From contig JAGIQG010000016.1 in NCBI GenBank assembly GCA_024679065.1, positions 14,136,001 through 14,200,000 on the forward strand: a DNA stretch of 64,000 nt. Direction: 5' to 3'. Made by a program: the position numbers and the translations under genes. Source of the stretch: Sphyrna mokarran (lineage: Eukaryota). The notes beneath the pieces were generated by a model. It was not told the DNA's origin. It saw only the letters and a list, made by a program, of their open reading frames with translations, and ran no database searches. This document shows, one piece after another, positions 1,038 through 61,556 of this stretch (position 1 is its first letter; each line of letters starts with the position of its first letter).

Positions 1038-1073
1038 AAATCGAAAACGTCAAAAAATTGGTCAGCGAACTCG
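1038..1073 (+). CDS. Microexon 1 (36 nt, phase 1-1), (E)IENVKKLVSEL
   Basis: acattttctttcctcag|AAATCG...GAACTCG|gtgagt. Confidence 0.9.
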
Positions 1074-1370
1074 GTGAGTTTGAAAGGACAATCAAACGTT
1101 TGATCCAAACTGACCACACCGCAACAACAGTGAGCACATGATTAGCCTAATAGACGGAAGACCTCCATTGTCATAACAAAACATAATATGAAATCAGTGA
1201 TAATAGGATCGTTCTAGTTTTACCAGTTAATGTTTACTTCCTGCCCTGATTTTGCTGCCCTCAAATCGCAAGAAAATTCTGAATAACCATTCCTTGTCAA
1301 TTTGCAGCATTATACAAAATTTAGGTTTGGCCAATATGTGAAAAGTGCCCCCCAGCCCCGTTCCCCCATA

Positions 1371-1398
1371 AACACACACACACACACACACACACACC

Positions 1399-1437
<39 letters not shown>
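1371..1437. repeat. (CA)n microsatellite, one interruption
   Basis: Direct reading. Confidence 0.98.
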
Positions 1438-1439
<2 letters not shown>

Positions 1440-2789
1440 TTGAAGATCTGCAGAAAAGAGAGAAACGAAAAAAAAATTCCATTGAAATTTCGTCACATTT
1501 GCTTCGCTGAATCTTACATTATTAATATTCTCAATGTTAAAATTAATCAGAAATTAACTACCAAGTCCATATAAATAGCCTGTTGTGACGTTAGGTCAGA
1601 GCTTGGAATCATGTGACGGATAATTCACTTCCTCACTCCTAAAATTCTGTAAATAGTTGAAAAGGCATGGTTAAGCGTGCAAGGGAAGGCTTTCCTTGGT
1701 GACTGCAAATCGAACAACACGCAAGTTTCGACAAGATCCAGAATATAGCACCTGCTTAGTTGACATCCATTTAAATATTTCTCTATTACCGGCACTCAGT
1801 GGCATTAATGTGTTCCATGCATAAGCCGCAATGAAACAACTCAGCAAAACAAAAGAAAACACTACAGATGCTGACAATCTGAAGAAAACACCGAAAGTGT
1901 TTGAATCCCACAGCAATTTGGGAAAAATCTGTGGACAGAGAAATCAAGCTGAACTTTCAATTTGTGATATGCATTTTGTGACTTTTCTTTTGTAGTATCG
2001 TATTTTTAGTTTTAGCTAATTACCTCATCTGTCTTTATAGAATATTGCTTTAATAGCCGTATGGTTTCCGACAAGGTGTACAATATATTTATAATTCACT
2101 TCGCTCAATCATTTCGAGCTGCGTTCTACTTCAGGAAACCTTGCATTTTAGAAGAAATATTAAAGGCAAACTGCCCGGAAGTGTTTGTTTCTCGTTTTGA
2201 ATCTCCACAAACATGGGCCGAGTTTCCTTCAGGCATGCACAAAATGTAAAGAATATAGGACAGGTAACAGAGAAACAGATCTTCCCCACTTTCTGCCAAA
2301 CTGTAACAGTCCATCTGGTATCCATGTGAAAACAAGCATATTTCTTTCTTTTTTTTTATTCTAACTTCGTAACAATGTGTTCTTTTCTCACACATATGCC
2401 TGTCCAGTTCCGCATTTAATGCATACACCTTAAGATCGCGTCGCGGTAGTCATATCGACATTATTTCCGCGAGTTGACAGGACTATTTGTCAAATCCTTG
2501 TTGGAGAATTGGATCTAGATGGGGTGGGATTCTCCATCCGCGCTTGCGCAAAACCGAGAATCCTACTTGAGGTCAATATAACTTTTCCTGGTCCCACATT
2601 CACCACCTGCTACAATTCTCGTGGTGGATGAATTCCACCCCCGTCCCCAAACCCCCGCCCCCTTGACCCCCTCCAGTTTTTCACTTTCGGACAAAAGACC
2701 ACATTTTCCACTGATTCTGACAAAACACACCATAACTTTGAAGAAGTCTATTAAACCATTTAGGATAAGACTGATAAGCCAGAATCGGA

Positions 2790-3980
2790 CCAGCAAAAAG
2801 GCGTTCGATAATGTGCCTCACAAAAGGTAGCTAGCTGCAGAACGTTAGGGTACACAGACTTGGTGGTGAAGTGTTAGCGTGAATTGACCATTGACTATCT
2901 AACACGATGCAGAGAGTTGGAATAAATGGAAGTTTTTCTGGTTAGCAGTTGGTGATTAGTGGCATGCCGCAGGGATCGGTGCTGGGGTATCAACTGTTTT
3001 CCATATACATAGACGACCTGGAGGAGGGGCTGAATGTAGAGTAAGAAAATTTGTTGATGATACGAAGATGAGTGGAAAAGTGAATTGCATGGAGGATGCG
3101 GAATGGCTGCAGCGAAATTTGGATAGGCTGAGTGAGTGGGCGAGGACCTGGCAGATGGAGCATAATGTTAGCAAATGTGAGGTTATCCACTTTGGAAAAA
3201 AATAATAGTAGAATGGAATATTTTTTAACTGGTGAAACGTTGCAGCAAGCTACCGTGCAGAGGGACCTGGGGGTCTTTGTGAATGAATCGCAAAATCTCA
3301 GTCTGCAGATGCAGCAGGTGATCAAGGAGGCGAATGGAATATTGACCTTTATCGCGAGGGAGATAAAATATAAAAGCAAGGAGGTCTTGCTGCAACTGTA
3401 CAAGGCACTGGTGAGGCCGCAACTGAAGTACTGTGTGCAGTTTTTGTTCCCTTATTTGCAAAAGGGTACATTGGGAGTACAAAGAACGTTCACTAGGCTG
3501 ATGCCGAAGATGAGGGGGTTAGCTTATGAGGAGAGATTGAGTAGATTGGGCCTGTACTCTTTGGAGTTTAGAAGGCTGAGGGGGGGGTCTTATAGAGACT
3601 TAGAAGATGATGAAGGTGCTAGATAGGGTAACAGTGGAGAGATTCTTTCCACTTAGAAAGGAAACCAGAACTAGAGGAGAAAGCCTCAAAATAAGCGAGG
3701 AGGGGGATAGCTTAGAACAAAAGTTGAGGAGGAACTTCTTCTCTTAAAGGATGGTGAATCTCTGGAATTCTCTGCCCATTGAAGTGGTGGAGGCTACCTC
3801 GTTGAATATGTTTAATCACAAGCAGAGAGATTTCTTATCGATAAGGGAATTAAGGGTTATGGGAAGCAGGCAAATAAGTAGAACTGATCCACTTCAGATC
3901 AGCCATGATCTTATTGAATGCGGGGCAGGCTCGAAGGGCTAGATGGTCTACTCATGCTCCTATTTCTTATGTTCTTCTGT
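2790..3980 (+). mobile_element. 5'-truncated CR1 LINE (RT C-terminal part + 3' tail), frameshifted
   Basis: KKAFDNVPHKR; LLQLYKALVRPQLKYCVQF; YEERLSRLGLYSLEFRRLRG; ends ttcttatgttctt. Confidence 0.93.
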
Positions 3981-4904
3981 AAGCCTTTAATTACGTTTTG
4001 GAAAAGTGAAAGGCATTGTTTTCATTAGTTTAGACGCTGGACAGGTAGCAACTGCCGCTAGGTCTCTCACTGACAACAGCGATTAAGACTAAGTTAGTCC
4101 ATTCGAAAATCTAGCGTCACAATGCCTTCTTTCACCAATCCATTAGAATTGGTTTTGAATGATACGCACGGTCCCAGTACCTTAAGTTTGAAGTTATCCA
4201 TCTAGCTACCACAAGAACTGGCTTCCTTTCTCCGAACTTCTTCCCACTGCCTAAGCACTGAACTCCTGTTCTTATTTCAATTTCTCTGGTATGTTCTTCA
4301 TGCCATGCCTGACCTCATCTTGTCCCTAATCTGTATCCATTATTCTCTCTATCATTTGGTTCCTGGGACCTTCTGAAAATCGAACTTCTCTTATTACTCA
4401 TCTGTTGGCTGATATTATTAAAGGTTCCCAAACCTCATGTAATATTGCCCTCACTTTTTAAAATGTCACTATCAGACCTATCCTTCCAGAACTACAATAT
4501 TACACTGCAGTATGCTCTTACAACTGACCTCCACAAGTGTATCTTTTTTTTTAATTCAAAATTCACGGACGTATTATCTACAGATCGATCCAGGAAATCC
4601 ATGCTTTATTGTCTCTAAGCAATGTTTCACTTCTCCACTTGGCCACGTTATCTCCTTTGAGATTAAGTATATCATTCTGAGATGAAAGCAAATTACTACT
4701 GTCTGAGAATCTGAAACAAGAAGAGAAATGCTGAAATATCTCAATAGTTCTGACAGCATCCGCCACTTTTGTCAGGATTGGGGGGGAAAAATCGTCCTCC
4801 CAAATCTTTTCATTTGCTCGGTGGAAATGAACTAAAGTAGTGCATTTATTGTCTATTGAAACCTGGTGGTTAAAAAAAAACTGGAATAATTTCTTGCACT
4901 CATT

Positions 4905-5580
4905 GTTTGGCGCTACTCTTCTTTGGCAATCAAGTCGATAAGGTTGTTAAGAAGGCATACGGAATCTTGGCTTTTATTGGTGGGGGGATTGAATTTCGGA
5001 GCCGCAACGTCATGTTGCAACTGTACATAACTCTGGTGCGGTCGCATTTGGAGTATTGTGTACAGTTCTGGTCCCCACATTATAAGAAAGATGTGGAGGC
5101 ATTGGAGAGGGTGCAGAGGAGGTTCACCAGGATGTTGCCTGGTATGGAGGGCAGGTCTTATGAGGAGAGGCTGAGGGATTTGAGGTTGTTTTCGTTAGAA
5201 AGGAGGAGGCTAAGAGGGGACCTGATCGAAACATATAAGATGATAAGAGGTTTAGATAGGGTGGACAGTGATAGCCTTTTTCCTAGGATGGAGAAAGCTA
5301 GCACGAGGGGACATAGCTTTAAATTAAGGGGTGGTAGTTATAGGACGGATGTCAGAGGTAGGTTTTTTAGCCAGAGGGTGGTAAGGGTATGGAATGCCCT
5401 GCCTGCTGCAGTTGTAGATGCGCCAACTTTGGGGGCGTTTAAGAGGTCCGTGGATAGGTTTATGGATGAAAAGGGAATGTTTTAGGTTAGAGGGTCATTG
5501 CTTTTTCTTATTTAGTCGGCGCAACATCGAGGGCCGAAGGGCCTGATCTGCGCTGTAATGTTCTATGTTCTATGCTCTAT
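4905..5580 (+). mobile_element. Young 5'-truncated CR1 LINE 3' end with open ORF2 C-terminus
   Basis: 192-aa ORF with LVRSHLEYCVQFWSPHYKKDVEALERVQRRFTRM; tail ggccgaagggcctg...(ttctatg)n. Confidence 0.95.
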
Positions 5581-7633
5581 CTCATTGATCTCTTTCATGT
5601 TGTTATCCCGTAGTGACATCAAGCAAATGATATGCAGTCAATCATTTGCTGATGATTGACTGCATCAGCAATCAATTGACTTCGCGTTTGAATACACAGC
5701 AGAGCACGTCGCAAAGCTTGTCAGTACTTATGCATCACCTCTTCCGTATACATCTTGAATCTCGCTGTCCCAGAGGCAAGGTGCTGGACAGTGCTTTAGA
5801 GACTCTCGTGCATGGAAAGGAAGGGATACAGTTTCACCTGCAACCCGTAGGCCCGCCTCTTCACGTACACCCAGAGTCAGAATAGGGTGGAGTTGTCCAT
5901 CATGCACAGTACAACTGGAATGCGAGTGAGATACACGACAAGAAACAAATGGAACTGGTGCATTTCAACTAATGAATGCGTTTAATTAGAATAGGAATGC
6001 AAACTGTCAGAATATAATCAAACTGTTGGTGATGACATGGTGGGGATGAAGGTGGGGAAGTAAAGCCTAACGTGGCACTTAAAAAATTTTGAATAATTAT
6101 GGAAAATTCACTTCCAAGATCAAGATTTAGCCTTAAGGCATCTGAGACCAGCTGATAAAACCAGTGCTTGAATTTCATACTTCGTATTGAAGGAATATCC
6201 TTGTATTGCCGTCTGACTGTTCACTCTATGCAGGATTGTTGTTTTTTTTTCGTTAACCCTTTATTAGTTTTCTACTTGCAATCCCAGATAACATGTCAGG
6301 TTGCCTTCTTAATGCTTACAGGAACTATCAAAAATAATGTTACCTTACAAGGAAACAAGAAAAAAGAATCAGGGTTTCAACTCAAAATAATTTATATTCA
6401 CGATCTTCTCATACATTTATAGGCAACGAGATTCACACGTTTACATGAAGTTGCTTAAAAATTGGAATTTCCGAATGACAAATAGTTAAGTTGGATGTGA
6501 ATGCGGCCAACACCGATATAGTCAATAAATTGTCTGTGTTGAGAGTTTTCTGTCAAATAGTTGTGCAAGTTTGGCATTGACTACAATCCAAACTGAATAG
6601 TTTAGTCGATAAACGCAGGCTTGATAACCCTCTTTTTCTTTCTACGTTATCTCTAATTGTTTTAATTGGCCTTGTTGCTACCTGCATGCGTGAGAGAGCC
6701 CTGAAATATCTACTCGAGATAATGGATTAGACAGCTGTAGTGTGCATGCTGAAGAAAGAGTTTGTCTAACATTTGCAGTATCAGGAGAACTTAAAATGTT
6801 TAGTAAACATTAATTCAGGTGCAAAATTAAATATGATTCAAATACGCAAGGTTGCAACAATCAAAAGGTAATTGGACTTGATAGGCTCAAATCTTCGGCA
6901 GCAGCTGTGATCCTTTGGGGGTTTTAAGTAAGTGATAAATTTGTCGATATTATGAGCAAATTCAAAGTTGTTCTCAACTTTAAACAGTTATTGAAAAAAA
7001 ACAAATGCATATTATCTGCTCCCGCTGTTTAAGCGAGGTTGGAAAGCTAAACGAAACCTTATAACCCTTTAAGAACCTTTTGTCGGGATGAGCGGAATAG
7101 GGAGACAAGCGCTTCTTTTTTTTCTAAATGTCGAAGTGCCATCAATGGACGTTTGGAAGAAGTGTATGTGGAAGTTCATAACACAGATAATTAATATGCA
7201 GTGCTGGAATCCAAAGTAATAATTTAAAAGGACTATCCAAAAAGTCTAAAACTGCTATCCTTTAGATCCGCCTGATAGAACGTATGCAAAAACAATATAA
7301 GTTTCAGGTATAGAAAGTTGGCAGTTACAAAGCACAGGGACTAGGGATGCCAGGCTCATGATGAACGGAGGTGAAATGGATCGTCTCACATGGCTATAGT
7401 CAAATACCTGTCGTCCACAGCCTTAAGCTACGATAAAAGGGTTCAGCAAGGCTGAAAGTTAATTGTAATGAAATGTGTCCCTGTAGCTCTTTGTTAAAAC
7501 TTACAATCTAAATCTACAGAGGAAAACATTGTGGTGCCTTGGGAGCGCTAATTAAAGAAAAGCATAAGTCCAAAGCCATTTGTGCATTTCTCAAATTGCA
7601 CTTTTGATGCATTATTTTCACTTTTACTGGTAG

Positions 7634-7660
7634 ATGAAGAATTGCGGAAAAAGAAAGCAG
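7634..7660 (+). CDS. Microexon 2 (27 nt), DEELRKKKA
   Basis: cacttttactggtag|ATGAAG...AAAGCAG|gtaaaa. Confidence 0.85.
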
Positions 7661-8302
7661 GTAAAATTGTTAGGAATAGTATGTTTTTTGTGGTATTTGA
7701 GTAAATTGTAGAACAAGCCAGATCAGTCTGGCAATTTTGATGTATGAATGGATTTTATCACTGACGTCCAGCTCTAATTAAAATCCAGATGTTTATTGCC
7801 AGCTCCCTTTATTTTTAATATTTTCCACTGGATAGACACAATGTCAATTTTTTCAAAAATGCATTACTGCTGATTCACATGCAAACAACCTAAACACTTC
7901 GCAGTTTTACTATCTGCCGCGTTCATTATTTCAGGAAACACTAGATAGTGTGGGTTCAACTTTTCTGGACAATCTAGAGGATATTGGATGACTTCATCAA
8001 TTCCTTTAAGTTTACAATGGCGTCTGACAAAATAGCCAGCAAAAGATCCTTCTATTGGTAGAGATTAAGATGAGTGGTCAGTAATAATAGCAGTTACTAA
8101 CAAACACAGGAAGTACTTCAGCGACACGACTTTATTTTGCTGTGAGTGTTTAGAATAATGGACTTGCTACAAAAAACTGCAGTTGAGGTGAGTGAGACTA
8201 TGGCTTTATGGAGCAACAAAATATATAGACGAGAGAGAAAGGAATGTAAATATGTGCTTAGAAGCAGTGTGATAAACACATCTGGCAAGACATTTATTAG
8301 AA

Positions 8303-8590
8303 GCACGGAGGTGCAGTGGTTAGCATTGCTGCCTCACAGCACCAGGGACCGGGTGTGATTCCAGCTTCCATACGGAGACTGTGTGTTCTCCCCACGTCTG
8401 CGTGGATTTCCTCTGGATTCTCTGGTTTCATCGCATAGTCCAAAATACCTGCTGGTTTCCATTGGGCATGCTACACCTCAACAGCATATCCGAACAGGTG
8501 CCAGAGAGTGGCAGCTGGAGATTTTCACATTCATCAATTGCAGTTTTAATGCACTCCTATTTATTTCACTAATAAATAAAGTCAAACTTA
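8303..8590 (+). mobile_element. tRNA-derived HE1-like SINE
   Basis: gtgcagtggttagcattgctgcctcacagc head (A box), degenerate B box, core ttctccccacgtctgcgtggatttcc. Confidence 0.8.
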
Positions 8591-8778
8591 GTATAGCCCC
8601 AATCAGTTGGACCGAATGTCATGGTTTTCCATCTTGAATTACATGCCAACCTGTGTAGCACACATTTCCTGCACCTTGCCTTGTAGATGCAATGGATTTA
8701 GCACTGCTCCTCTTCAGGTTCCAGTTCTCCATATCATGAAAACTGTAACTGATGTTTTAAACATTATTTTCGTTGCAG

Positions 8779-8814
8779 AGATAACAGCTCTGCAGAACAA
8801 AATGCATAACTTAG
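8779..8814 (+). CDS. Microexon 3 (36 nt), EITALQNKMHNL
   Basis: attttcgttgcag|AGATAAC...AACTTAG|gtaagg. Confidence 0.9.
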
Positions 8815-9760: not shown

Positions 9761-9998
9761 TAGCTCTGGTCTCAATAAATAAACTTCGAAATCAGATCAG
9801 GACAGTATTGGATTAGAATTGACTGTACACATCACAGGTATGCATGGCTATTTCACCTACAGCTAAACTGTTATTGTGAGAGTTACTATTTCATGGAATG
9901 TAAGCATCTTTTCATAACATGTTGCACAACTGATGTCCCTTTGTTTATGCTTTGTATTTTGCTGCTTTCAATGACCTTCCATTCCTCTTTCTAATCAC

Positions 9999-10025
9999 AT
10001 GAAAAAGTGAATCAAAATGACAAAG
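9999..10025 (+). CDS. Microexon 4 (27-nt class, acceptor reads CAC not CAG), DEKVNQNDK; possible in-frame 18-nt form 10008-10025
   Basis: ttcctctttctaatcac|ATGAAAAAGTGAATCAAAATGACAAAG|gtaagc; fits the 27-nt consensus and fills the expected slot in the alternation, but lacks AG. Confidence 0.6.
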
Positions 10026-17681: not shown

Positions 17682-17717
17682 AGGTACTTAAACTGAAAAC
17701 GAATTTGAGTATGGCAG
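17682..17717 (+). CDS. Microexon 5 (36 nt), EVLKLKTNLSMA
   Basis: ctgcttctttcag|AGGTAC...ATGGCAG|gtaaga. Confidence 0.9.
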
Positions 17718-18804: not shown

Positions 18805-18831
18805 ACGAACAGCTGCAAATCAAAACAAAAG
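18805..18831 (+). CDS. Microexon 6 (27 nt), DEQLQIKTK
   Basis: gttactatttttag|ACGAAC...ACAAAAG|gtaagg. Confidence 0.9.
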
Positions 18832-20045: not shown

Positions 20046-20183
20046 TTAAAAGCCTTCCGACAGCCATTAAGTCATGAGTGTTTGTTAAAGTTGTTTCCAA
20101 TTTCAATTTGTTGAGCAACAATGCATTTTCCCCTTTATATACTAATATGAGTCTTTGTCTCCAGTTGCAATTTGCATGACAAC

Positions 20184-20506
20184 TCTGTTCCTTTTGGGAT
20201 TTGTGTGTCGACCCTAGGAGGCAAAATGCCTCAAAGTGGACATCCTGAAATTCTGGATGGTAAAACACTGGATGGGAACACTTTGGAAGCCGTAACCATG
20301 AAATGTATAACCCTGGAAGGCATAACCCCGGAAGATCTAAGATCAGATGGCATAACCCAGGAAAGCATAACCTTTGATGGCATAACCCCCAAGGGTGTCA
20401 CTCCAGAAGGCTTAGTCCCAGTAGGTGAAACACCAGAAGACAAATCCCAAGAAGGCAAATGCTGGAAAGCAAAATCCTAGATAGTGAAATCCCAAAAGGT
20501 GACAGA
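20184..20506. repeat. Degenerate 15-bp tandem array flanked by ~20-bp inverted repeats
   Basis: Unit approx. ga(a/t)ggcataacccc(g/a); IR tctgttccttttgggattt (20184-20202) / aaatcccaaaaggtgacaga (20487-20506). Confidence 0.75.
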
Positions 20507-21912: not shown

Positions 21913-21948
21913 GAATGGAAGATTTGAAAAGGTCTCTGGAAGAAGCAG
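21913..21948 (+). CDS. Microexon 7 (36 nt), GMEDLKRSLEEA
   Basis: ttccttttatttggttag|GAATGG...GAAGCAG|gtaact. Confidence 0.88.
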
Positions 21949-24344: not shown

Positions 24345-24371
24345 AAACTAAGTTGCGTAATAAAATTAAAG
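24345..24371 (+). CDS. Microexon 8 (27 nt), ETKLRNKIK
   Basis: cttgtttcttttag|AAACTA...ATTAAAG|gtacta. Confidence 0.87.
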
Positions 24372-25519: not shown

Positions 25520-26805
25520 AAGGTATCGCCCTTCGCATGCTTGACTCTTTCACAACGTGTCCCATCAAATGTAATTGTAGAAAGCAAAGACTCGTCGAGT
25601 ATCTGGATACATAGCGACATGGATAGAAGGTTGGCTAGCTGACACTGAATGGCATAAATGGGTCATTTTATGGCTGGCAGAAAGTATAATGACTGGTGTG
25701 CCAAATGGATCAATGCTGGGGTCCCAATTATTCAACATATGGATGAAGGGACTGAGTGTTGCGGGTTGACTTAGAAGTAAAAGCTGGACAGTTTAGGCTT
25801 GTATTTGTTGGAGCTCAGAATAGCAAGACACAACGTGATCGAAACAGATGAGGCCTTGCGGGGCAAAGCAGAGTGATGTGGTGAGGATGTTTCTCCTTGT
25901 TGGAGAATCTAGAAAGAAGGATTACAGATTTAGAATAAGGAGTTTCCCACTTCAGGCAGAGATTTGGAAGATGACACAAAGCTTGGAGGTGTTGTGGATT
26001 GTGTGAGGGATGTCAGAAGGTGCAGTGAGACATAGATAGGATGCAAGACTGGGCGGGGAAGTGGCAGATGGTCTTCAACTCGGATAAGTGTGTGGTAGCT
26101 CATTTTGGCAGATAAATGGGATGAAGGAATATAGTATTAAGGGTAAGAGTCTTAGTAGTGGAAGATCAGAAGGATCTTGGGGTCCGGGTTCATAGGATTT
26201 CAAATTGGCTTCGCAGGTAGAGGATGTGGTTAAGAAGGCGTATAGAGTACTGGCCTTCATCAATCGAAGATTTGAGCTTTGGAGTCGGGAGATAATGCTG
26301 CATCTGTTTAAGACCCTGGTCAGACCCCATTTGGTTCTGTTTGTCTCATTACAGGAAGAATGTAGAAGCCATTGAAAGGGTGCAGACGAGATTTACAAGG
26401 ATGTTGCCTTATGATGATAGGTTGAGAGAACTCGGTCTTTTCTCCTTGGAGAGAAGAAGGATGAGAGGTGACCTGATAAAAGTATATAAGATGTTGAGAG
26501 GTATTAATTGGGTAGATTCTCAAATGGCTGCCACAACAGGACACAGGTTTAGCGTGCTGGGGAATAGGTATCGAGGGCATATAGCGGATAAATTTTTCAT
26601 TCAGAGAGTGGTGGGTGCGTGGAATCGGCTGCCGACGTTAGTGGTGGAGATGGATTCTATAAGGTCTTTTAAGAGACTTCTGGATGAATACATGGGACTT
26701 AGTAAAATTGAGGTTTAAGGTTAAGCCTCGTAGGTAGAGATGTTCGGCGCAACTTGTGGGCTGAACAGCCTGTTTGTGCTATAGTTTTTCTATATTCTAT
26801 GTTCT
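25520..26805 (+). mobile_element. Two adjacent or nested CR1 fragments (older ~25520-25965, younger ~25965-26805)
   Basis: ORF 26341-26718 HYRKNVEAIERVQTRFTRMLP...LFSLERRRMRGDLIKVYK; (ttctat)n tail. Confidence 0.9.
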
Positions 26806-27877: not shown

Positions 27878-27913
27878 AAATCCAAAAAATGAAAGAAACT
27901 GTCCTCGAATTTG
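27878..27913 (+). CDS. Microexon 9 (36 nt), EIQKMKETVLEF
   Basis: ctactttctttctag|AAATCC...GAATTTG|gtaagt. Confidence 0.92.
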
Positions 27914-29853: not shown

Positions 29854-29880
29854 ACACGAGACTGGAAAGCAAAGATAAAG
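29854..29880 (+). CDS. Microexon 10 (27 nt), DTRLESKDK
   Basis: caaatgccatcag|ACACGA...GATAAAG|gtaagg; weak polypyrimidine tract but consensus peptide. Confidence 0.85.
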
Positions 29881-32185: not shown

Positions 32186-32221
32186 AAGTGGAAAAGATTC
32201 AAAATCAGTTCTTGGATTGTG
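32186..32221 (+). CDS. Microexon 11 (36 nt), EVEKIQNQFLDC
   Basis: tttgtcaccttctcactcaag|AAGTGG...GATTGTG|gtaagt; tandem AAG-AAG acceptor. Confidence 0.87.
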
Positions 32222-34161: not shown

Positions 34162-34188
34162 AACAACGTCTGAACAGCAAAGGAAAAG
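34162..34188 (+). CDS. Microexon 12 (27 nt), EQRLNSKGK
   Basis: ctaattaacgttgcaattag|AACAAC...GGAAAAG|gtaaag. Confidence 0.85.
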
Positions 34189-34299: not shown

Positions 34300-34365
34300 T
34301 TCTCTCTCTTTCTCTCTCTCTGTCTCCCCCTCTCTCTCTCTCTGTCTCTCTCTCTCCTTCCTTCC
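34300..34365. repeat. (CT)n-rich microsatellite
   Basis: Direct reading. Confidence 0.9.
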
Positions 34366-35583: not shown

Positions 35584-35619
35584 CATTGGAAAAAGCCAAG
35601 AAAGAGATTACTGATATTG
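35584..35619 (+). CDS. Microexon 13 (36 nt), ALEKAKKEITDI
   Basis: ttattttccaatag|CATTGG...GATATTG|gtgagt. Confidence 0.9.
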
Positions 35620-37857: not shown

Positions 37858-37884
37858 CAACAAAGCTGAGTAACAAAACCAAAG
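37858..37884 (+). CDS. Microexon 14 (27 nt), ATKLSNKTK
   Basis: cttcacttttctccag|CAACAA...ACCAAAG|gtgaga. Confidence 0.92.
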
Positions 37885-41925: not shown

Positions 41926-41961
41926 AATTGGAAAACGAAAAGAATGACGCATTTGATGGTG
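41926..41961 (+). CDS. Microexon 15 (36 nt), ELENEKNDAFDG
   Basis: ttattttctatag|AATTGG...GATGGTG|gtgagt. Confidence 0.88.

Positions 41962-43703: not shown

Positions 43704-43769
<66 letters not shown>
43704..43769. repeat. (CA)n microsatellite, pure
   Basis: Direct reading. Confidence 0.98.
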
Positions 43770-48865: not shown

Positions 48866-49967
48866 TTAAATCAGTTTTCTACACCCCTCCATTCCCATTC
48901 TGTTCATGTGCCCATCTAAGTATTTCTTAAATAACTCCAGAGTACCTGCCTCCATCACTTTACTTGGCAGCACATTCCATACCCCCACCATCCTCTGTGT
49001 GAAAAAACTCCCTCTAGCGTCCAAATTATACCTTACCCCCCTCACCCTAAGTCCGTGACCCCTCGTGCTATTTGAGTCCATCCTAGGAAAAAGCTTAACC
49101 CTGTTTACTCTATCTATACCCCTCATAATCTTGTCCACCTCTATTAGATCTCTTCTAAGTCTACGTCTTTCTAAGGAAAACAGTCCCAATTTGCCTAACC
49201 TCTCCTCGTAACTCAGACCTTCCATACCAGGCAGCATCCTGGTAAACCTCCTCTGCACTCTCTCCAGAGTCTCCACGTCCTTCCGGTAGTAGGGCGACCA
49301 GAACTGGACTCAGTATTCCAAATGAGGTCTAACCAACTTTTTATACAACTGCAACATTAAAGGCCAGCTCTTGTACTCTATACCCCTTCTTATAAAGGCT
49401 AACATACTATATGCTTTCTTCACAACCTTCTCCACTTGCTCTGCCACCTTCAGAGACTTGTTCACCTGCACCCCCAGGTCCCTCTGCATTTCTATACTCT
49501 TAATAGGTCTACCCTTTATCATATACCTCCCCCTACATTCTTTCTCCCGAAATGCATCACCTCACATTTATCAGGATTGAATTCCATCTGCCACCTGTCT
49601 GCCCAAGCTACCAGCCTATCTATGTCCTGCTGCATCGCCTGACAATGCTCCTCACTATCCGCAAGTCCAGCCATCTTTGTATCGTCTGCAAACTTGCTGA
49701 TCACTCTGCTTACTCCCTCTTCCAAGTCATTTATATATATTACAAATAGAAGAGGTCCCAGTAGCGAGCCCTGTGGCACACCACTAGTGACCGATCTCCA
49801 GCTAGAAAAACACCCTTCCACTATTACTCTCTGTCTCCTATTACCAAGCCAGTTACTGATCCATCTAGCTACCTGTCCTTGTATCCCATTAGCCTTGACC
49901 TTCTCAACTAACCTCCCATGAGGGACTTTGTCAAACGCCTTACTAAAATCCATATAGACGACATCTA
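48866..49967 (-). mobile_element. 5'-truncated CR1 LINE ORF2 RT core, lightly disrupted
   Basis: MDFSKAFDKVPHGRL...GVPQGSLLGPLLFVIYINDL...KFADDTK; LVRPHLEY; ERVQRRFTRMLPG. Confidence 0.97.
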
Positions 49968-50409
49968 TTTTGTCAACAGTGACACACAGATCCTAAACCC
50001 GCTTCCATCTGCAATGATTAGGTTGTGGATTCAAGTCAAACGCCAGAGTACTGAGTAAATAAATACAAGTTATTGTGACAGAGCAACAGTGAGGGATCTG
50101 AAATTTCAAATGATATGTTACACCCAACCCCTGCTCTCTCTTCACTGCACACAAAAAGGCTTATGAATATACACAGAATTATCCGCCTTTAGGATAACGT
50201 CAGTTCTAGACACGAAGGAATCGCTGCACTTAAGATTCTAGAAAAAACAAGAATCATATAAACCTCGAGAGGAGAGAAATGGAACAGGAAGTATGTGCTG
50301 TGATCGTCATTCTTCACCCCATGTTTGTTGAGTTCTCTGGAAATGAAATTATTTCCCTCCTGTGAAACCTTCCTTTCTTTTTCAAAAAACTCTGATTGCG
50401 ATTTTTTAG

Positions 50410-50436
50410 AACAAAGAATGCTGAAAAAGGATAAAG
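50410..50436 (+). CDS. Microexon 16 (27 nt), EQRMLKKDK
   Basis: attgcgattttttag|AACAAA...GATAAAG|gtaagt. Confidence 0.92.
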
Positions 50437-52002: not shown

Positions 52003-52038
52003 TCATAGGAAAACTAAAAGAGAGTATCACTGAATTGG
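52003..52038 (+). CDS. Microexon 17 (36 nt), VIGKLKESITEL
   Basis: tttttttctgctttag|TCATAG...GAATTGG|gtgagg. Confidence 0.88.
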
Positions 52039-52362: not shown

Positions 52363-52389
52363 AACAAAGATTTGAGAACAAAGACAAAG
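52363..52389 (+). CDS. Microexon 18 (27 nt), EQRFENKDK
   Basis: ttatgctccctccag|AACAAA...GACAAAG|gtgagg. Confidence 0.92.
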
Positions 52390-52699
52390 GTGAGGATGGA
52401 ACTTGGTTTAATGGATGTCGAAATGGAACTATCTTTTTTTTCCTCCATGAATCTTCTTTTTATCCTTGTCAATGTAACATTGGACATTGGCCTTATCAGG
52501 AAGTGATGCTTCAAGTCCCTGTCTTCACAAGTCTCAAATTATTCTGTGTGTTAGAGATGGACAGGTGCCTGACTTGCCAAACAACTCCTCTGTCGGAGAT
52601 TTTAAACGGCATGTTTTTTTTAAAAAAATCACCTTAATTGCCATGAGTGCATCGCACATATGTCACAGAATTTTTTTTTGAATGTTTGCAAGAAATATC

Positions 52700-52842
52700 T
52701 TCCTTCTTTCCATGTTTTCTCGTCCTTTCCTTCCTTTTTTTCTTCTTTCCTTCCTCCTTCCTTCTTTCGTTCCTTCCTCCTTCCCTCCCTCAATTCTTTC
52801 CTTCCATTCCTTCTTCCTTTCTGCCTTCCTTCCTTCTTTCTG
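52700..52842. repeat. (TTCC)n-like pyrimidine tract in intron 18
   Basis: Direct reading. Confidence 0.9.
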
Positions 52843-52984: not shown

Positions 52985-53020
52985 AAATATCAAACCTGAA
53001 AGCAAGTCTGCAAGACGCAG
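52985..53020 (+). CDS. Microexon 19 (36 nt), EISNLKASLQDA
   Basis: gttttcttttatgatag|AAATAT...GACGCAG|gtcaat; weaker donor. Confidence 0.85.
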
Positions 53021-53930: not shown

Positions 53931-54854
53931 TATTTTGACATTGTGAAATGCATACAATGGAATGTCGACAGGTGATTTTAAGTCGCTGATACTGCAGGAT
54001 AGCTTTCCAACAGCAAAAGAAGTGTGGTTGACAGGATATTTATTTCGATGGAGCATGTTACTTATTAATAAAAAAATCCTGAACAAAGCAGTTCTTTATG
54101 CACTCTAGTATATTCTATTTGGGTACTAATTAATCATTGCCTTGATTGACCTAAACATAATTCTGGAAAATCTTGAAAGTCTAAACATAACAACTTACAA
54201 GGAAGAAGCCTCTATGTTGATATGGCATCGTGTTAAAGGACATGCAATATGTTTCCGAGTTAGGAAAAATACTTTACCACTGAAATATTCAACAAGGCTG
54301 AATACCTGAAATTGAGTTTTGACCGGTGCAATGCAATGTTGCAATGTTGGCACTTTTGAGGTGTAAATGCCACGACAGAAGGAGACTTCACATGAAATTC
54401 GAGTTAAGTTATGGGACCCTTGGCATCTCTCTCAAAATGGACATCAGGCCTTGTTTAATCTCTCACCTGAATGACAGGAGCTCGAACAATTAATAATTAA
54501 CATTAATAATTCCAATATGGAATATTTTCTGAGGGTTATGGAATGAGACATCAGAGCACAATCCTCTGACTTAGAGTCTGTGGTGCTTTCAACTTTGAGG
54601 AAAAAAGAACACCGTTATTCTCACAGATGCAAAATTCCAGTAGTTCATTTAAGTTTCCTTTCAACTGTTTGGCTAAGTTTCATCTTGGAAACTATTTGAA
54701 ATAAATTGTGTTTTTTATTCATAATCAATTTGTGCCGTGATGAAGGAAGAAGGCATTTTAAATCGGAACGGGAGGTTGCATAGCACTCCTGGTTGGAATT
54801 GAATTGCACTTCCAGTTTCCAAATAATCAATTTTGACTTTTCATCCTCTTTCAG

Positions 54855-54881
54855 AAGAAGAGCTTAGTAGGACAGACAAAG
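54855..54881 (+). CDS. Microexon 20 (27 nt), EEELSRTDK
   Basis: tcatcctctttcag|AAGAAG...GACAAAG|gtaagg. Confidence 0.92.
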
Positions 54882-55129
54882 GTAAGGATAAGCCAACTGC
54901 GATGTGAGACATGAGTGGGAAATTCTGTCGACATCAGTTGTCGAACTCGCAAATATTGATCCCATTGACGATCATGGAGTTGAATATCATCATGTGTAGA
55001 GAATGGGAAATAGTAGTGATGTCGCCTGTTTTATCTCCACGTTGAAAATTGATTTTAAGTTGACTCTTAATTTCGTCTGTACTGTTAACTTCTTTCCTGC
55101 AATGTTATTGCGACGGTAATGATCCTTTT

Positions 55130-55830
55130 TTCATTCAGTTGCGCGAGTTATGCGTCAGTGGTTTGCCAGCATTTATTAGCAATCTCTAACTCACTTCAGC
55201 TGAGTGGCTTACACTCAGAAAGCATTTCAGAAAGCAGTTGAGAGTCAAACGCATTGATATGGCTCCGGGGTCATCCGGACTGTTTTGGACAGTGATAGCC
55301 TTTTTCCTAGGATGGAGAAAGCTAGCACGAGGGGACACAGCTTTAAAATAAGGGGTGATAGTGATAGGACGGATATCAGAGGTAGGTTCTTTACCTTAAG
55401 GGTGGTTCGGGAGTGGAATGCCCTGCCTGCGGCAGTTGTAGATGCGCCAAGTTTGGTGGCGTTTAAGAGGTTAGTTGATAAGTATATGGAAGAGAAGGGA
55501 ATGGTTTAGTTTGGAGGGTCATTGCTTTCTATATTGGTCAGCGCAACATCGAAGGCCGAAGGGCCTGTTCTGTGCTGTAATGTTCTATGAGTCAAATATA
55601 GGGTAAAGACAGCAGATTACGTTCCCTAAAGGACGTTAGTAAATCAAATGAGTCTTTGCTCCAATCGATAGTAGTTTCATGGTCATCAGTGCATTCCCAA
55701 TTCCACATTTTTTTATTGAATTCAAATTGCACCCCTGCTGTGGCGGCATTCGTACCCGGGTCCACAGACATTAGCTGAGCTTCTGGATTGATAGTCTAGC
55801 AATAATAAAACTCGGTGATTACCTTCCCCT
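55130..55830 (-). mobile_element. Deu/SacSINE-like SINE interrupted by a + strand CR1 3' fragment (55285-55590)
   Basis: Inserted piece DSDSLFPRMEKASTRGHSFK closely matches 5262-5570; SINE resumes after it. Confidence 0.85.
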
Positions 55831-56509
55831 ATAGTGGCATTGAATAGTAGAGAAAGCTGCGCATCAAAACTCCGACCCATTTACCCACCGAAATTAACCC
55901 CCTGCCTACTACAATTGTTCTATTTCTGCATTTAGATTAACTCATCCCTGAAAGAACCAGCAGCTTTCCCGTGCACTAGTAATTGGATAAACTGGAATAC
56001 AATGGGCATCTTCGTTGCTAAAAATAGACTGAATTACCTATGATCCTTCATTCAGATTCAGCCATGTATCCATATCGAACCAATTAGTGGATATTCCGGC
56101 GAATGTGAACTTTCCTGTGCTCCTCACGCACAATATGACAAATGGAGTTCAATAGAAGTGGATGACAGGCGCGGGGTGTAACAAAGTTCAAAGAAGACCC
56201 AAACTACATTTTCATTTGAAAGTGGAGAAAACGGTGAGGGTCGGGGGTGGGGTGTGATGGGGAGGAAGTGTGAGGGGATCTTATAGTCGGAACGTGTGAA
56301 AATTATTGCTTTCCGACATATGGTACAATATTAATTTAAAATGGGCAAGGAAAGCAACGTCTGATGAGGTTTATTAAAGGGTGATTCACGATCAAAGGTC
56401 ACTTCCTCTGATGCACTGACAATGCATTCCATCTCCTGCCTCCATATGGAGGATCTTATTTCATTTCAAGTCGTTTTTAGGAATGTCCAAGTGATATTGC
56501 AAAACAGAA

Positions 56510-58030
56510 ACCAGAATATTGATTCAGTGGGAGGAAGCAGAGGCTGATGGTCAAAGATTGTTTTGTGCCTGGAAGCCTCTGCCCAGTGGGGTGCCACAAG
56601 GATCGGTGCATTTCTGTTTGAAAAATCTAGATGTGAATTGAGAAATATGTTTCAAAGATCACAGGTGTCACGAAAATTGGTGGTGTGATAAATAGCGAGG
56701 TGGAAAACCTTAGATGCCATGTTAATATGGACAAGTTGAACAGCAGGTCAGAACATTGGTCGATGCAGATTAACCCTGAAGAACCTGTGGTGATGCATTT
56801 TGGGGGAACGAAGAAGGCAACGGAATACATAATGAAAGACAGAATGCTGGGAAGTACAGAGATGCAGAAGATTGCATGTCAATGACCTCTGAAGAGAGCA
56901 AAACATCAGGATTAGATGATTAAGAAGACATATCGGATAATTTTCTGTATTAGCCAAGGCACGAATTTTAAGAGTAGGGAGTGTACGATGCAGCTGTATA
57001 AAATAGTTATGACGCACGGTTCAGCAATAGGTTGCCAGTTTCTTTTTTGTACAATATACAAAAACACAAACATTTGAAGCAAGAACAGTCCACCAGGTCT
57101 TCAAGCCTGTCCTGCCACTCAGTACAATTATGCCTGATGTTGGTCTCGGCTTATTTTTCTGCCTTACTTCCCCAAAGCCTTCCATTCCTCACTCTGTCAT
57201 ACATTTATCCACCTCCAATTTAAATACTTCAAATGATTGAGCCGCCATTATTCTTCATACAGTGACTAATCAGCCTCCACGAGAAGAAATATATATGTAT
57301 CTCAGTTTCAAATGGTCAGCCCATTATCTTCTAGCTGCCCCCTTGTTCAGGACTCTCTTACTAGTGAAAACATATCATCATATATCTTTCAAAAAACCCT
57401 CAGGATCTTATATCTTTGGCTAACATCACCCTTCACGCTGCAAAACTCCAAGGATTACAAGCCCACACACTTGAATCTCTCTTGATAACACTCTTTGTCC
57501 AGATTGCTATAAGGAATGCGTGACAATAACAGACAGAGTACCCATCAAATTGTTGAAAAGGATTATGGATTGTGGAAAGGATAGATGAGATTTACAAGAA
57601 TAGTTCCAAGGATGAGAAACTTCAGTTCTGAGGATAAATTATAGGGAATGGCACTGTTGTCTTGGAGAGAAGAAAGCCAGGAGCAGATTTGTTAAGACGT
57701 TCAAATTCATAAGATAACTAGACAGAAAAGATGACGGGAAATTCTTCCAAGTCACAAAACGATAAAGAACGAGAAGGACACATTTAATGTGATTTGCAAA
57801 AAAAAACAATGTGAGACAAATACTTCGACACGCAATGAAACGTTTAGGTCTGCAATGCGCTTCTTTGAAAGAATGGTGGAGATAGCTTCAATTGAGGAAT
57901 TCAAGGGCGCTTTAGATTATTATTTGAAGAGAAAAAAAAAGTGCAGAGGTGCGAGAAAAGGGCAAGGACATTAAGTCATTGCGCTCATTTGGCTAGCTGA
58001 TGTGGACATGATGTGAAAACTGTATTCTTC
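56510..58030. mobile_element. Cluster of decayed CR1 fragments (+ 56510-57030, - 57060-57500, + 57560-58030)
   Basis: agtggggtgccacaaggatcggtg (SGVPQGS); VMHFG; later 3' motifs. Confidence 0.7.
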
Positions 58031-58519
58031 TGTAGCACAGTAATTCTGTGGTTCAATGGTATGCAGCTGATGTACAGCTATAGACTATATTCTGGAAACT
58101 GAGGTTGGGTTGTGTTTTACAAAAGGCTAAGGCACAACCAGCTAAGGGGTCTCATTCTATGCTTTCTGTGATGTGAAAAAAAATGCAATAGTCTAAATGA
58201 CCAACTATTGCCTCATCTCAAAGCGCAGCCTAACAAATGATTTTGAAGTTTGGTCAGTATTTCAGTAGTCAATAGCACACAACCTCATTGCAAAGGCAGG
58301 AATGAAAGAAGTGCCAAAAAATCAATTGTTTTGTTTCGTGATAGTATCTGTGCAATAGGCATTGTCCCAGGATACGGTCTGTCACCTTGCTTTGTTTTCA
58401 TTTTTTGGCTGTGGAACTTTCACATCTAGCTGAGACAGAAACTTAAGTTTGTCTCTTATCTTGCTACAAAAGGAGTACAGCTAAAGTTCTTGAGGCTGAT
58501 TCCTGTGACAGTAGGTCTG

Positions 58520-58945
58520 CTACATAAGGAAAGACTGAGTCAATTCGGATTAGATTCATTGGAGTTGAAAGAAGTGAGAGGCGTCTCATAGTAATATATA
58601 AATTTCTAATAGGGTTAAGCAGGGTAGATTCTGAAAGGATGTTCCCGTTGGTGGGGGAGTCCGGAGTAGCGGTCACAGTTTGAGAATAACCTTTTATATC
58701 TGTGGTAAGGAGAAAGTTGTTCACCCAGAGAGTCGTGAATGTGTGGAACTGACCAGCACAGAAAGTAGCTGAGGCCAAAGTATTATGTGATTTCAAGAAA
58801 AAAATAAATATAGCTCTTGGGGCTAGATGAATCAAGGGATGTGGGAGGGAGTGGAATCAGGATATTGAATTTGATGTTCAGCTATGATCATGGAGCAAGA
58901 TCGATGGGCCCAATGCCCGCCTACTGTTTCCAGTTTCTACGTTTC
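58520..58945 (+). mobile_element. CR1 3' fragment
   Basis: ttcacccagagagtcgtgaatgtgtggaac; tail cctactgtttccagtttcta. Confidence 0.8.
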
Positions 58946-59094
58946 CAGCAACAGAAAGACACGATCATTCATTCAATACTCAGTCACCAATGAATGTTCA
59001 AACTTTAGTATGTATGCGCATGCCTGGCATGGAGTTCGGACCTGTTATATTCAGAGTACAATTCACTTCAGCATTATTTATATTTAATTTTCAG

Positions 59095-59130
59095 AGCTGG
59101 AGAAACAAAAAACCGTTCTTGAAAATACAG
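59095..59130 (+). CDS. Microexon 21 (36 nt), ELEKQKTVLENT
   Basis: tatttaattttcag|AGCTGG...AATACAG|gtcagt. Confidence 0.9.
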
Positions 59131-60335
59131 GTCAGTGGAATGTCCTGGTTCCATACATTGATGCTGGAAAGGACATATATATGCTCCCCGTTTCTCCATT
59201 TGCCATTGGCTCAGTGAATTGTGATTCTGTTGTAGGCAGAAGAAAGAAAAGATAAGAGTGATTTTCTTCAATTTAAAGTGCTGACAGGAAAGAAATCCCT
59301 CACTGAAATTTCACACTGTGTCTCCCTCCTTTGGAAACCTGCAACGAGTATTTTTACGTTGCACCCTCGTGCCTATTGCCTCGTGAATGCGCTACAACTA
59401 GCTATTCCTGGTCATTAACTTTCATTGCAACAGCCTTTGTATTGGCATCGTGCGTATGATAGAAAAAGTAGAAATTTCATCGGCCTAATTATTGGCAATA
59501 CTTAAGATTTTTGCCTTCAATCTTCAACATTGCCCGTTTCCTCATCATGGAACCCATCCCTCTCCAGAACAACTTCCTGAGCTTCGAAAACGTAGCTCCA
59601 GGTTTGACGACAAGCTCAACTTTCAAAACTAAAATTGGCTCAATCGCCGCTATTGTTTCACTCAACGCTACCTGCCCCCAATCTCAACTTGTAACAGTGT
59701 ATTTCAGTGTTCCGCTTGAGCTTGCATTCTGATGATACCCTCGTACATTTAGTGCCTTTGTTATTTAGAAATTTGATTATTCCAATGTTCTTCTGGGCAA
59801 AGTACGATTATTCAAACACGTCTCTCGTTATCAATGCCAAATCACCAAAACACAGGCCCAGTTCCTTAACAGATATAAATTCCCTTTATCCATACCTCTG
59901 AGCTTATTGATCTGTTTAGACTTCTGCGATTACAAAAATTCAATAGAAAATTTTGGACCTAACATTAAAAGTCCCTTCATGGCCTTGCACGCCGCTAGTC
60001 ATCATTGCCTTCTGGCAGCACTGTAATCTTTCTGTGGTAGTCAAATACTAGCGTCGTGTGCACCCACAGTGCGATCGCAGCATTTGTTTTCTCTCCCTCT
60101 TCATCTTCCTTCTATTCTTGTCCATCTCTTTCTTATTTTTCTACTATACTGATTTGCAGATCTGCGTCTATTTCTGTCGTTCTTGTTACTTTTGCTATCA
60201 CTTTGTTCTTCTCCGCTTACGTTCCCTTCACCAAAAACTCTTTTCATTCCTTATTTTTGACGTCCTTCCCTATTTTGCTCTCGTCTACCATGTGCTTCAA
60301 TCAATCGTACGATTAATAGTAACTATTTATTTCAG

Positions 60336-60362
60336 AAAACAGTATGAAAGAAAACATTAAAG
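60336..60362 (+). CDS. Microexon 22 (27 nt), ENSMKENIK
   Basis: ctatttatttcag|AAAACA...ATTAAAG|gtaaat. Confidence 0.9.
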
Positions 60363-60509
60363 GTAAATGTAAAGCACCGCGTTCCCATACTAAAGTCAGC
60401 AGAAGGATGTTTCCTGATAACGAGCTGTATTGTCAAGAATCACATAGAATAATGTGGGATATGATACACCAAAGAAACAGCGCTGTCAGAGCAAATAACA
60501 AAGGGGTCA

Positions 60510-61190
60510 TTGAGATATACAGAACAGAAAGAGGTCTTTCGGCCCAACTCACCCATGTTGGCCAGGTGTCCAAAACTGAACTAGTCCCATTTACCTATAG
60601 TTGGCCCATATTCTTCCAGCCATTTCCCATCGATCTGTCAATCCTACAATGGTAGTAAAAAGAGGGTAATTTTACCCTCTTGCCTGGCAGTTCATTCCAT
60701 AAATGCACTGCACTCTGTGTGAAATAATTGCCTTCAGATCCTTTTAAATATTTGCTCTCTCAGATTAAACCAATACCATTTAGTTTTAAACTCCCCTATT
60801 CTGGGTAATGTACATTGTAAGAAGTCTCACAGCACCAGGTTAAAATCCGACAGGTTTATTTGGTAGTAAGCATTGCAAGCTTTTGGGGCTTCGTCAGGTG
60901 AGTGGAGAGAAATCGTCTGAAAGCTGGTGACGTTTACTACCAAATAAACTTGTTCGACTTCAACCTGGTGTTGTCAGACTTCTTACTGTGTTTACCCCAA
61001 TCCAACACCAGCAGCTCCACGTCATCATGTACCTTGACCCATTCATCTTATCTATGTCGCTCATGATTTTATAAAGCTCTGTAAGGTCAACCTTCATTAT
61101 GCTACATTTCAGGGAGGAAAAACCCAGCCTATCTAGCCTCTCCTTATAATTCATATGTCGAGTCCATGGCGATATCCATGCATTAAAAAA
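60510..61190 (-). mobile_element. CR1 3' fragment interrupted by a palindromic element
   Basis: MNYKERLDRLGFSSLK...VDLTELYKIMSDIDKM. Confidence 0.8.
60815..61025. mobile_element. Short palindromic element, probably Penelope-like-derived
   Basis: ~53-bp imperfect inverted arms 60817-60869 / 60934-60986. Confidence 0.7.
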
Positions 61191-61520
61191 ATCCATATTC
61201 CCTCATCTGACACTATCTGCAGAGGTCTATATTTTCGATTCCTCATATGGCTAGACTCCGTTTTTCGGTGAGAAGCAACTCATTTCGACAGGTATTCCTC
61301 ACAATGAATTCCAGACCTGATATTCATAACACATATTTCAGTGAAAACGTTGCCTCGGAATGACCTTGTGAAATAAAGATCTTTTTCACAAGTGAAAACA
61401 GTATTACTGTGTATTCTACTCAAAGCGTTCGTCACTTTTTGGGCCACCCTTATGCTCCTTTTTATTTCATTGGCAGCCCACATGCCAAAATAACGAAAAT
61501 GTTCTTTGCTTTTGCTACAG

Positions 61521-61556
61521 AAATAGATATGTTGAAGGAGCGTCTTCAGGATACAG
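61521..61556 (+). CDS. Microexon 23 (36 nt), EIDMLKERLQDT
   Basis: ctttgcttttgctacag|AAATAG...GATACAG|gtaaat. Confidence 0.92.

Follow-up and report, generated by a model that had tools for sequence, protein, structure and literature searches.

TRIM5, TRIM21, pyrin and BTN3A1 use the B30.2 domain for recognition. TRIM coils are short and encoded by few ordinary exons, and in TRIM-B30.2 proteins (TRIM39-like, A33-like, TRIM21, TRIM7, pyrin) the coil is followed by a B30.2 terminal exon, the genes clustering near the major histocompatibility complex (MHC). Butyrophilins such as BTN3A1 and BTN2A1 differ in having IgV, IgC and transmembrane segments, only a few heptads in small exons, a short linker exon and then B30.2. 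Ligand binding by B30.2 domains via variable loops is described in the accessible part of one paper (PMC3137616). For chicken BG, the accessible text of two others describes a coiled-coil tail of 13-36 exons of 21 or 24 nt (PMC4046983), an IgV domain and a transmembrane segment with no B30.2 (PMC8813856), and regulation of actin-myosin interaction by the tail of 21-nt heptad exons (PMC4046983, PMC8813856). Here we show that a stretch of 64,000 nucleotides from the shark Sphyrna mokarran (assembly GCA_024679065.1, 2.77 Gb; contig JAGIQG010000016.1, here C668, positions 14136001-14200000; hereafter the window) holds part of an array of tiny coding exons, and that the gene is very probably a large phase-1 microexon array ending in a B30.2 exon.

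The window is vertebrate DNA of 40% GC with many retroelement pieces. Its plus strand carries 23 tiny exons between positions 1038 and 61556, 12 of 36 nt (type A) and 11 of 27 nt (type B), in strictly alternating ABAB order (Table 1), for which the chance is 1 in 1,352,078. All 23 end in G followed by GT and are of phase 1-1. When spliced, the resulting 729 nt are free of stop codons and prolines if read in phase 1, whereas the two other frames contain 16 and 24 stops. An earlier sequence-only reading of the window had claimed these exons, their span and the open, proline-free frame, all of which were recovered; its assumption of an elasmobranch source was also right. It had further called the alternation free of exceptions, a claim that is correct inside the window and does not extend to the rest of the gene, where same-type neighbours and candidate exons of 18, 21 and 24 nt occur. 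Its description of the exons as lying between AG and GT fits all 23 G|GT donors but only 22 of the 23 acceptors, the exon at 9999 being preceded by CAC.

The bare motif AG-[36 or 27]-G|GT was not enriched in the window (41 and 46 occurrences on the plus strand, 48 and 46 on the minus strand), so the signal must lie in splice-site strength and exon content; simple counts of AG-[n]-GT, which show no strand bias, were not used further as a test. Twelve 36-nt and ten 27-nt plus-strand hits were distinguished by pyrimidine tracts, strong donors and related peptides. In leave-one-out profiles each of these 22 canonical exons outscored every minus-strand position, and the eleventh 27-nt exon (9999) was recovered by a profile built from the other 22. 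A profile from 45 exons outside the window (21 + 24) gave exactly 23 window sites, again in ABAB order, none on the minus strand and one in total in 20 dinucleotide-matched random sequences. As the 45 exons had first been located with the window-trained profile, this control is not fully independent. Splice-site matrices alone, trained on the 22 window exons and run over 264 kb, yielded 110 plus-strand candidates, whose lengths peaked at 27 nt (22 candidates) and 36 nt (24), whereas 1 and 2 of them were 21 and 24 nt long; of 65 minus-strand candidates, 1 measured 27 nt and none 36 nt. Tandem-repeat and direct-repeat scans of the window revealed no exon array, only microsatellites and retroelement copies, and its long open reading frames were retroelement pieces or noise. 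The tiny exons of the window are real.

The window is, however, only the middle of the gene. In 351,000 bases around and including it we found 83 canonical 36- or 27-nt exons (39 A, 44 B; 67 in the training set and 16 outside it) and none on the minus strand. The gene spans at least 404 kb, from C668:13916428, 219.6 kb before the first base of the window, to its B30.2 exon, and at least 83 exons, so that the 60 kb and 23 exons given earlier were incomplete. Outside the bases covered lie about 188 kb upstream, back to the B30.2 of the preceding gene, and two internal gaps (54 and 14 kb), in the larger of which pattern hits show further exons. Phase-1 stops occurred in none of the 83 exons, as against 52 and 44 of them in the other phases. 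The earlier reading was right to propose a hidden gene of phase-1 microexons. Variation is greatest at third codon positions (entropy 1.70 versus 1.48 and 1.22 in A exons, 1.57 versus 1.44 and 1.21 in B exons). The exon copies have a mean nucleotide identity of only 43-44% and the window introns have in common only retroelement and microsatellite repeats, which argues that the array is old and kept by selection, and is not a recent tandem repeat. Beyond the window we observed same-type neighbours and a few copies with damaged splice sites. Off-size candidate exons of 18, 24 and 21 nt, at C668:14204670, 14232499 and 14290999, respectively, stand where the 36/27 alternation breaks, and the 18- and 24-nt candidates would shift the coil register.

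The array closes, 21 kb past the last typical module exon read, in a B30.2 exon of matching strand and phase that ends in a stop codon and is preceded by a small Trp-containing linker exon (Table 1). Comparison of this B30.2 with PDB sequences gave 84 matches, the best being BTN3A1 (E value 2.4e-25), and a fold search with a low-confidence model (predicted local distance difference test, pLDDT, 55) had butyrophilin and TRIM B30.2 structures among the matches listed, butyrophilins being the best solved match here too. In the ray orthologue, the 9 residues preceding B30.2, which are the counterpart of the linker exon, align with BTN3A1. The analogy with butyrophilin and B-G genes drawn by the sequence-only reading therefore gains the B30.2 end and the linker, but no Ig or transmembrane exon was found to complete it. 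Its comparison with CD23, a C-type lectin, had to be given up since the terminal domain is B30.2 and not a CD23-like C-terminal C-type lectin domain (lectin domains were not searched separately); the statement on 63-nt CD23 exons was not found in print. Unlike BTN3A1, whose phosphoantigen-pocket residue His351 is needed for phosphoantigen sensing according to the accessible part of the source (PMC7348870), the shark B30.2 has an aligned Thr, which makes a phosphoantigen unlikely as its ligand.

Each A + B exon pair encodes 21 residues, that is, exactly three heptads. In a relaxed set of 101 exons, some noise included, unit positions 2, 5, 9 and 16 are I/L/V/M/F in 84-91%, in agreement with the heptad coiled coil first suggested for the window; at position 12, where Thr, Ala or Ser is frequent, 40% have such a residue, and the sixth core position, number 19, is occupied by Lys in 40 of 58. 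Position 2 is rich in Ile/Val and position 5 in Leu. As Ile/Val at a and Leu at d is the preference of parallel dimers, the residue pattern suggests a parallel two-stranded coiled coil with position 2 as a and position 5 as d, which the core Lys would loosen once per module. The 83 exons amount to 864 residues. With 0.15 nm for each of them the rod would measure about 130 nm, or roughly 150 nm once the unread gaps are counted in; the 36 nm calculated from the window exons fell well short of this.

The gene belongs to a multigene family. A 34-base pattern for the 27-nt exon had 30 exact matches in the whole genome (4 for the control), 21 of them in C668:8.59-14.30 Mb and 9 in a second contig, C1548:98.1-101.35 Mb. 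With one mismatch allowed (first 100 of 195 matches), the C668 matches formed six blocks of about 0.4-0.6 Mb each, on both strands. Six arrays, each closed by a related B30.2, thus occupy about 6 Mb of C668; of the B30.2 paralogues on this contig, the five best (37-40% identity, 144-162 bits) each close an array of their own in matching orientation, the next paralogue (135 bits) lies on C1548, and scores then drop to 109 bits. The C1548 array blocks lie between the MHC class I genes, all 53 of 53 matches to which fell in C1548:85.8-95.8 Mb, and the bulk of a large TRIM/butyrophilin cluster. C1548:85-113 Mb brings together MHC class I genes, about 100 SPRY exons, numerous exons for TRIM RING domains and some dozen butyrophilin-type pairs of IgV and IgC; with class I first, the microexon arrays next and TRIM/butyrophilin genes last, the layout is reminiscent of the chicken B locus. 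A B30.2 exon with an in-frame TGA, possibly a pseudogenised paralogue, was seen downstream of one C1548 array (C1548:99103312-99103824, minus strand). A short pattern taken from the beginning of the 36-nt exon was too weak to be used (11 matches versus 4 in the control, only 2 in the clusters).

Relatives were present in other cartilaginous fishes. The nearest database proteins were from Scyliorhinus (71%), Narcine (53%), Chiloscyllium, Leucoraja, Cetorhinus and Callorhinchus; a first, 'longer' protein search had returned only distant TRIM-like proteins, nearly all amphibian, with 24-37% identity. In a quick tree of B30.2 domains (125 rows chosen from 283 proteins by score above 75 and length), the family formed one clade of 24 of the 125 rows with a Shimodaira-Hasegawa-like approximate likelihood ratio (SH-aLRT) of 99. 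A careful tree of 37 hand-picked rows, including shark TRIMs, two shark butyrophilin-type proteins and frog and teleost B30.2 proteins, placed all 13 chosen family rows in one clade with support of 100/100, apart from the tested shark butyrophilin-type proteins. The named members of the clade are all sharks, rays and a chimaera.

Several database models of these relatives join 9+12-residue units of the same kind to the B30.2 of this clade, and most of the long-enough models listed in Table 1 carry such units. The Narcine and Leucoraja models had their units at intervals of 21 aa, and a 945-aa Scyliorhinus model had 9 of them (shuffled maximum 2); there were none in one shark butyrophilin and two shark TRIMs. 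Of nine annotated isoform pairs compared, four differed by exactly 9 aa. Automatic database gene models of this kind generally rest on RNA data. These ones differ from the gene described here in being automatic predictions, mostly fragments, with misleading names ('TRIM39-like', 'A33-like', 'TRIM58/69-like', 'nuclear-pore anchor-like'): most have 175-460 aa and only two, of 945 and 1697 aa, exceed this range. The expectation that such a gene would be poorly annotated was thereby confirmed. In the longest model, XP_042192744, an 8-residue Pro/Thr/Asp-rich tandem repeat breaks the coil at about residues 900-1010, and a repeated block lies near residues 1030-1170.

Table 1. Exons of the microexon gene and related database models. 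Exon positions without prefix are those of the window. M, motif; L, leave-one-out profile; O, outside-trained profile.
Feature	Position or accession	Strand	Support and remarks
Exon A (36 nt), phase 1-1	1038..1073	+	M, L, O; array extends upstream
Exon B (27 nt), phase 1-1	7634..7660	+	M, L, O
Exon A (36 nt)	8779..8814	+	M, L, O
Exon B (27 nt)	9999..10025	+	profile score 28.4; AC acceptor, strong GT donor, inclusion doubtful
Exon A (36 nt)	17682..17717	+	M, L, O
Exon B (27 nt)	18805..18831	+	M, L, O
Exon A (36 nt)	21913..21948	+	M, L, O
Exon B (27 nt)	24345..24371	+	M, L, O
Exon A (36 nt)	27878..27913	+	M, L, O
Exon B (27 nt)	29854..29880	+	M, L, O
Exon A (36 nt)	32186..32221	+	M, L, O
Exon B (27 nt)	34162..34188	+	M, L, O
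Exon A (36 nt)	35584..35619	+	M, L, O
Exon B (27 nt)	37858..37884	+	M, L, O
Exon A (36 nt)	41926..41961	+	M, L, O
Exon B (27 nt)	50410..50436	+	M, L, O
Exon A (36 nt)	52003..52038	+	M, L, O
Exon B (27 nt)	52363..52389	+	M, L, O
Exon A (36 nt)	52985..53020	+	M, L, O
Exon B (27 nt)	54855..54881	+	M, L, O
Exon A (36 nt)	59095..59130	+	M, L, O
Exon B (27 nt)	60336..60362	+	M, L, O
Exon A (36 nt)	61521..61556	+	M, L, O; array extends downstream
Trp-containing linker exon (27 nt)	C668:14318086	+	precedes B30.2 exon
Terminal B30.2 (PRY-SPRY) exon, phase-1 start	C668:14320311-14320831	+	intact 172-aa domain; Pfam SPRY E 2.4e-15
Callorhinchus milii model, 'nuclear-pore anchor-like', 1697 aa	XP_042192744		B30.2 clade
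Narcine bancroftii models	XP_069797409/11		B30.2 clade
Scyliorhinus torazame model	GCB75680		B30.2 clade
Leucoraja erinacea model	XP_055510696		B30.2 clade
S. canicula model	XP_038672306		B30.2 clade

The region of the six C668 genes (C668:8-14.4 Mb) was searched for the N-terminal domains of butyrophilins and TRIMs. It contained no butyrophilin-type IgV (shark butyrophilin query, 46 genome matches, 74 of 74 candidates scored), no IgC (PF22705, 82 matches genome-wide, 88 of 88 candidates scored), no V-set among the top 150 of 1261 candidates and no TRIM RING (PF15227) among 150 scored of 391. Such Ig and RING exons were readily found elsewhere in the genome, where the IgV query detected distant V domains down to 26-30% identity. 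In 8 of 8 family models scanned, no Pfam domain besides SPRY (RING, B-box, Ig) exceeded the cut-off; for the B-box this covers the 8 models, as the genome was not searched for it. None of 9 family models had a hydrophobic 19-mer above a KD19 value of 1.59, compared with 2.36 for a butyrophilin control, and among the candidates of the 78 kb farthest upstream, short of the unread 5' end, no transmembrane exon was convincing by eye. The N-termini of one Narcine and one Scyliorhinus model were mutual best matches (73 versus 58 for the next), and the start points, which fall within the coil itself, coincide between models from two species and two paralogue groups; this speaks for a soluble protein. 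The N-terminal 420 aa of the Callorhinchus model had no usable match in the ESM Atlas. Elsewhere on the contig, a cluster of V-set and C2-type Ig exons was seen at C668:1-5.3 Mb, 3-7 Mb before the first microexon gene.

How, then, does this locus compare with the described systems? Like chicken BG, it belongs to a multigene family, part of which lies near the MHC/TRIM region, and its length would vary by exon number. Unlike chicken BG, its unit is a pair of 36- and 27-nt exons, repeated to at least 83 exons over 404 kb and ending in B30.2, with no IgV found among the candidates scored; heptad exons of 21 or 24 nt are nearly absent among the shark candidates, so that the principle is the same but the unit is different. 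It shares heptad exons, a short linker exon and B30.2 with butyrophilins (BTN3A1, BTN2A1 and those of sharks), but has far more heptads, and the genuine shark butyrophilins are at C1548:94-112 Mb. As in TRIM-B30.2 proteins, a coil precedes a B30.2 terminal exon and loci cluster near the MHC, but RING and B-box are missing from the 8 family models and no RING exon was found among the candidates scored in the six-gene region. As far as tested, the gene fails membership of the butyrophilins, BG and TRIMs, and it would work most like the tail of a butyrophilin or BG protein. The parts are known (B30.2, and the heptad microexons of BG and butyrophilins), while their combination and scale are not described in the literature searched. 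No description of the family was found there, although subscription papers and supplements outside the search could hold one, and the accessible part of PMC12841164 does not mention such genes. Whether these loci form an undescribed family of chimaeras, rays and sharks is, in our judgement, evenly balanced; the family would have genes of 0.4-0.6 Mb with about 100 frame-neutral microexons, rods of 130-200 nm with a distinct B30.2 tip and neither Ig nor RING, MHC-linked and six-gene loci, and length and register varied by splicing.

What the sequence shows directly is a set of exons in one frame with a heptad pattern and a closing B30.2, together with arrays at the paralogues and a B30.2 clade. 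We propose that they make up one very large protein-coding gene in which an array of 36+27-nt phase-1 modules is followed by the 27-nt linker exon and the B30.2 exon. Its product would be a dimeric rod of at least 864 residues, about 130-150 nm long, with a pair of B30.2 heads at the far end. Since heptad microexons, a 27-nt linker and B30.2 are also the layout of the butyrophilin cytoplasmic part, the array may have originated by repeated duplication of a two-exon module from a short tail of heptad exons and B30.2 common to butyrophilins and TRIM genes. As every exon is frame-neutral, skipping would alter rod length; loss of a whole pair would keep the heptad register and loss of a single exon would break it. 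The target of the dimeric B30.2 head would be some microbial polymer or else a host protein, with the rod serving to space the head or tether it to the cytoskeleton or to partner coils. We lean, by analogy, towards an intracellular long-reach spacer or adaptor with no Ig ectodomain or RING, comparable to a free-standing, enlarged cytoplasmic tail of a butyrophilin or BG protein.

Several points weigh against this proposal. Its assigned role is the least certain step, resting on analogy only, and that one mRNA runs through all the exons is what we infer from their sequence. The B30.2 tree does not separate a butyrophilin from a TRIM origin. The 1697-aa Callorhinchus model carries only 3 of the 9+12 units and one Scyliorhinus model none, and the short database models might stem from transcripts that are genuinely short. 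The sequence read stops short of the 5' end, where an N-terminal domain too divergent for the four domain searches, or a short membrane anchor, could lie; of 1261 V-set and 391 RING candidates, only 150 each were scored. Two candidate exons outside the window have AT donors. Within the window, exon 9999-10025 has CAC (9996-9998) as its acceptor instead of CAG, with 92 nt free of AG upstream and a strong donor. It resembles a genuine exon whose acceptor was altered or misread, an allele, an assembly error or a fixed loss being candidate causes. If skipped, it would keep the frame but shift the heptad register. The next AG, 9 nt inside, would leave an in-frame 18-nt exon; it was rejected as acceptor with a score of -6.7 versus 2.7-14.1 for the 22 canonical acceptors. 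U12-type (AT-AC) splicing was also rejected, as the upstream donor GTAAGG does not fit the U12 donor consensus.

Four other explanations were weighed against the soluble spacer. The array could be the giant cytoplasmic tail of a BG/butyrophilin-type membrane receptor, with a divergent Ig ectodomain and a transmembrane exon in the 188 kb upstream. The heptad microexons, the linker exon, a B30.2 with BTN3A1 as its best solved match and the partial V-set scoring are all consistent with this, as is the second cluster between MHC class I and TRIM/butyrophilin genes, which recalls the chicken BF/BL-TRIM-BG order described in the accessible part of PMC8813856. Each of the six genes would need such an ectodomain, however, and an IgV query sensitive to 26-30% identity found none in their region; with IgC also missing there, and family models devoid of Ig or a clear transmembrane segment, we consider a receptor unlikely. 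A membrane-anchored tether, in which a short N-terminal signal-anchor on an organelle or the plasma membrane would hold the B30.2 130-150 nm into the cytoplasm, would have golgins and kinectin as comparison systems, and its short anchor exon would escape all domain searches. In the Callorhinchus model, basic residues come after an initial hydrophobic stretch with a KD19 of 1.59, and the Leucoraja model opens with a stretch of 1.48, but both values are borderline and the stretches are unlike each other, the N-terminal 322 aa of the Callorhinchus model had no credible match in the shark genome (1 match, E 2.8), and predicted gene starts often run into introns. Such a tether is quite improbable.

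Nor do we find it at all likely that the array is not one transcript, with internal promoters or early polyadenylation yielding short coil-plus-B30.2 and coil-only proteins and much of it rarely used. The looser alternation and degenerate exon copies outside the window would fit this, and so would the 945- and 1697-aa models being the only retrieved ones above 460 aa; yet all 83 exons agree in frame, strand and phase, their codon positions bear the marks of selection across the 404 kb, and annotation pipelines miss 27-36-nt exons behind kilobase introns, which alone can explain the short models. Decay or pseudogenisation of the locus in this lineage has very little in its favour: the AC acceptor at 9999, the two AT donors, one stop-containing exon copy outside the window that lacks AG and the related C1548 B30.2 with TGA would agree with it, but none of the 83 exons has a frame stop, the B30.2 is intact and 71% identical to the Scyliorhinus orthologue, and the frame survives the loss of any single exon.

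About 6 Mb on C668 and about 3 Mb beside the MHC on C1548 encode a family annotated only as short, misnamed fragments, for which the exact exon coordinates given here are usable in re-annotation. The principle of tiny symmetric exons, known from butyrophilins and BG, is extended to a three-heptad, two-exon module, with at least 83 exons per gene, coupled to B30.2. If these loci do form an undescribed family, a third kind of MHC-linked B30.2 protein would stand beside TRIMs and butyrophilins, with a possible clue to the origin of the bird BG tail. If expressed as predicted, these genes would be of use in comparative immunology as a new B30.2 class, linked to the MHC, from the oldest lineage of jawed vertebrates, and as a natural system for testing how microexon inclusion tunes rod length and register.

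The longest protein-like open reading frames of the window are intronic retroelement fragments at 3132-3626 (+), 4874-5485 (+), 26296-26718 (+) and 48866-49992 (-), and two intronic retroelement copies (5262-5504 and 55286-55528) are 89% identical; we take these fragments to be reverse-transcriptase elements of the long interspersed nuclear element (LINE) type. An intronic 15-nt minisatellite of 7 copies (62% matches) lies at 20284-20388, within the open frame 20151-20480. Microsatellites of (AC)n, (TC)n and TTCC type were found at 1372-1437, 43705-43769, 34301-34356 and 52699-52840. Two back-to-back long open reading frames (600 aa on the minus and 659 aa on the plus strand) are present at C668:13904001-13910000, inside or just before the gene, together with a frame holding a Cys-rich finger and a short coil; these are presumably young retroelement copies, LINE-type and ORF1-like.

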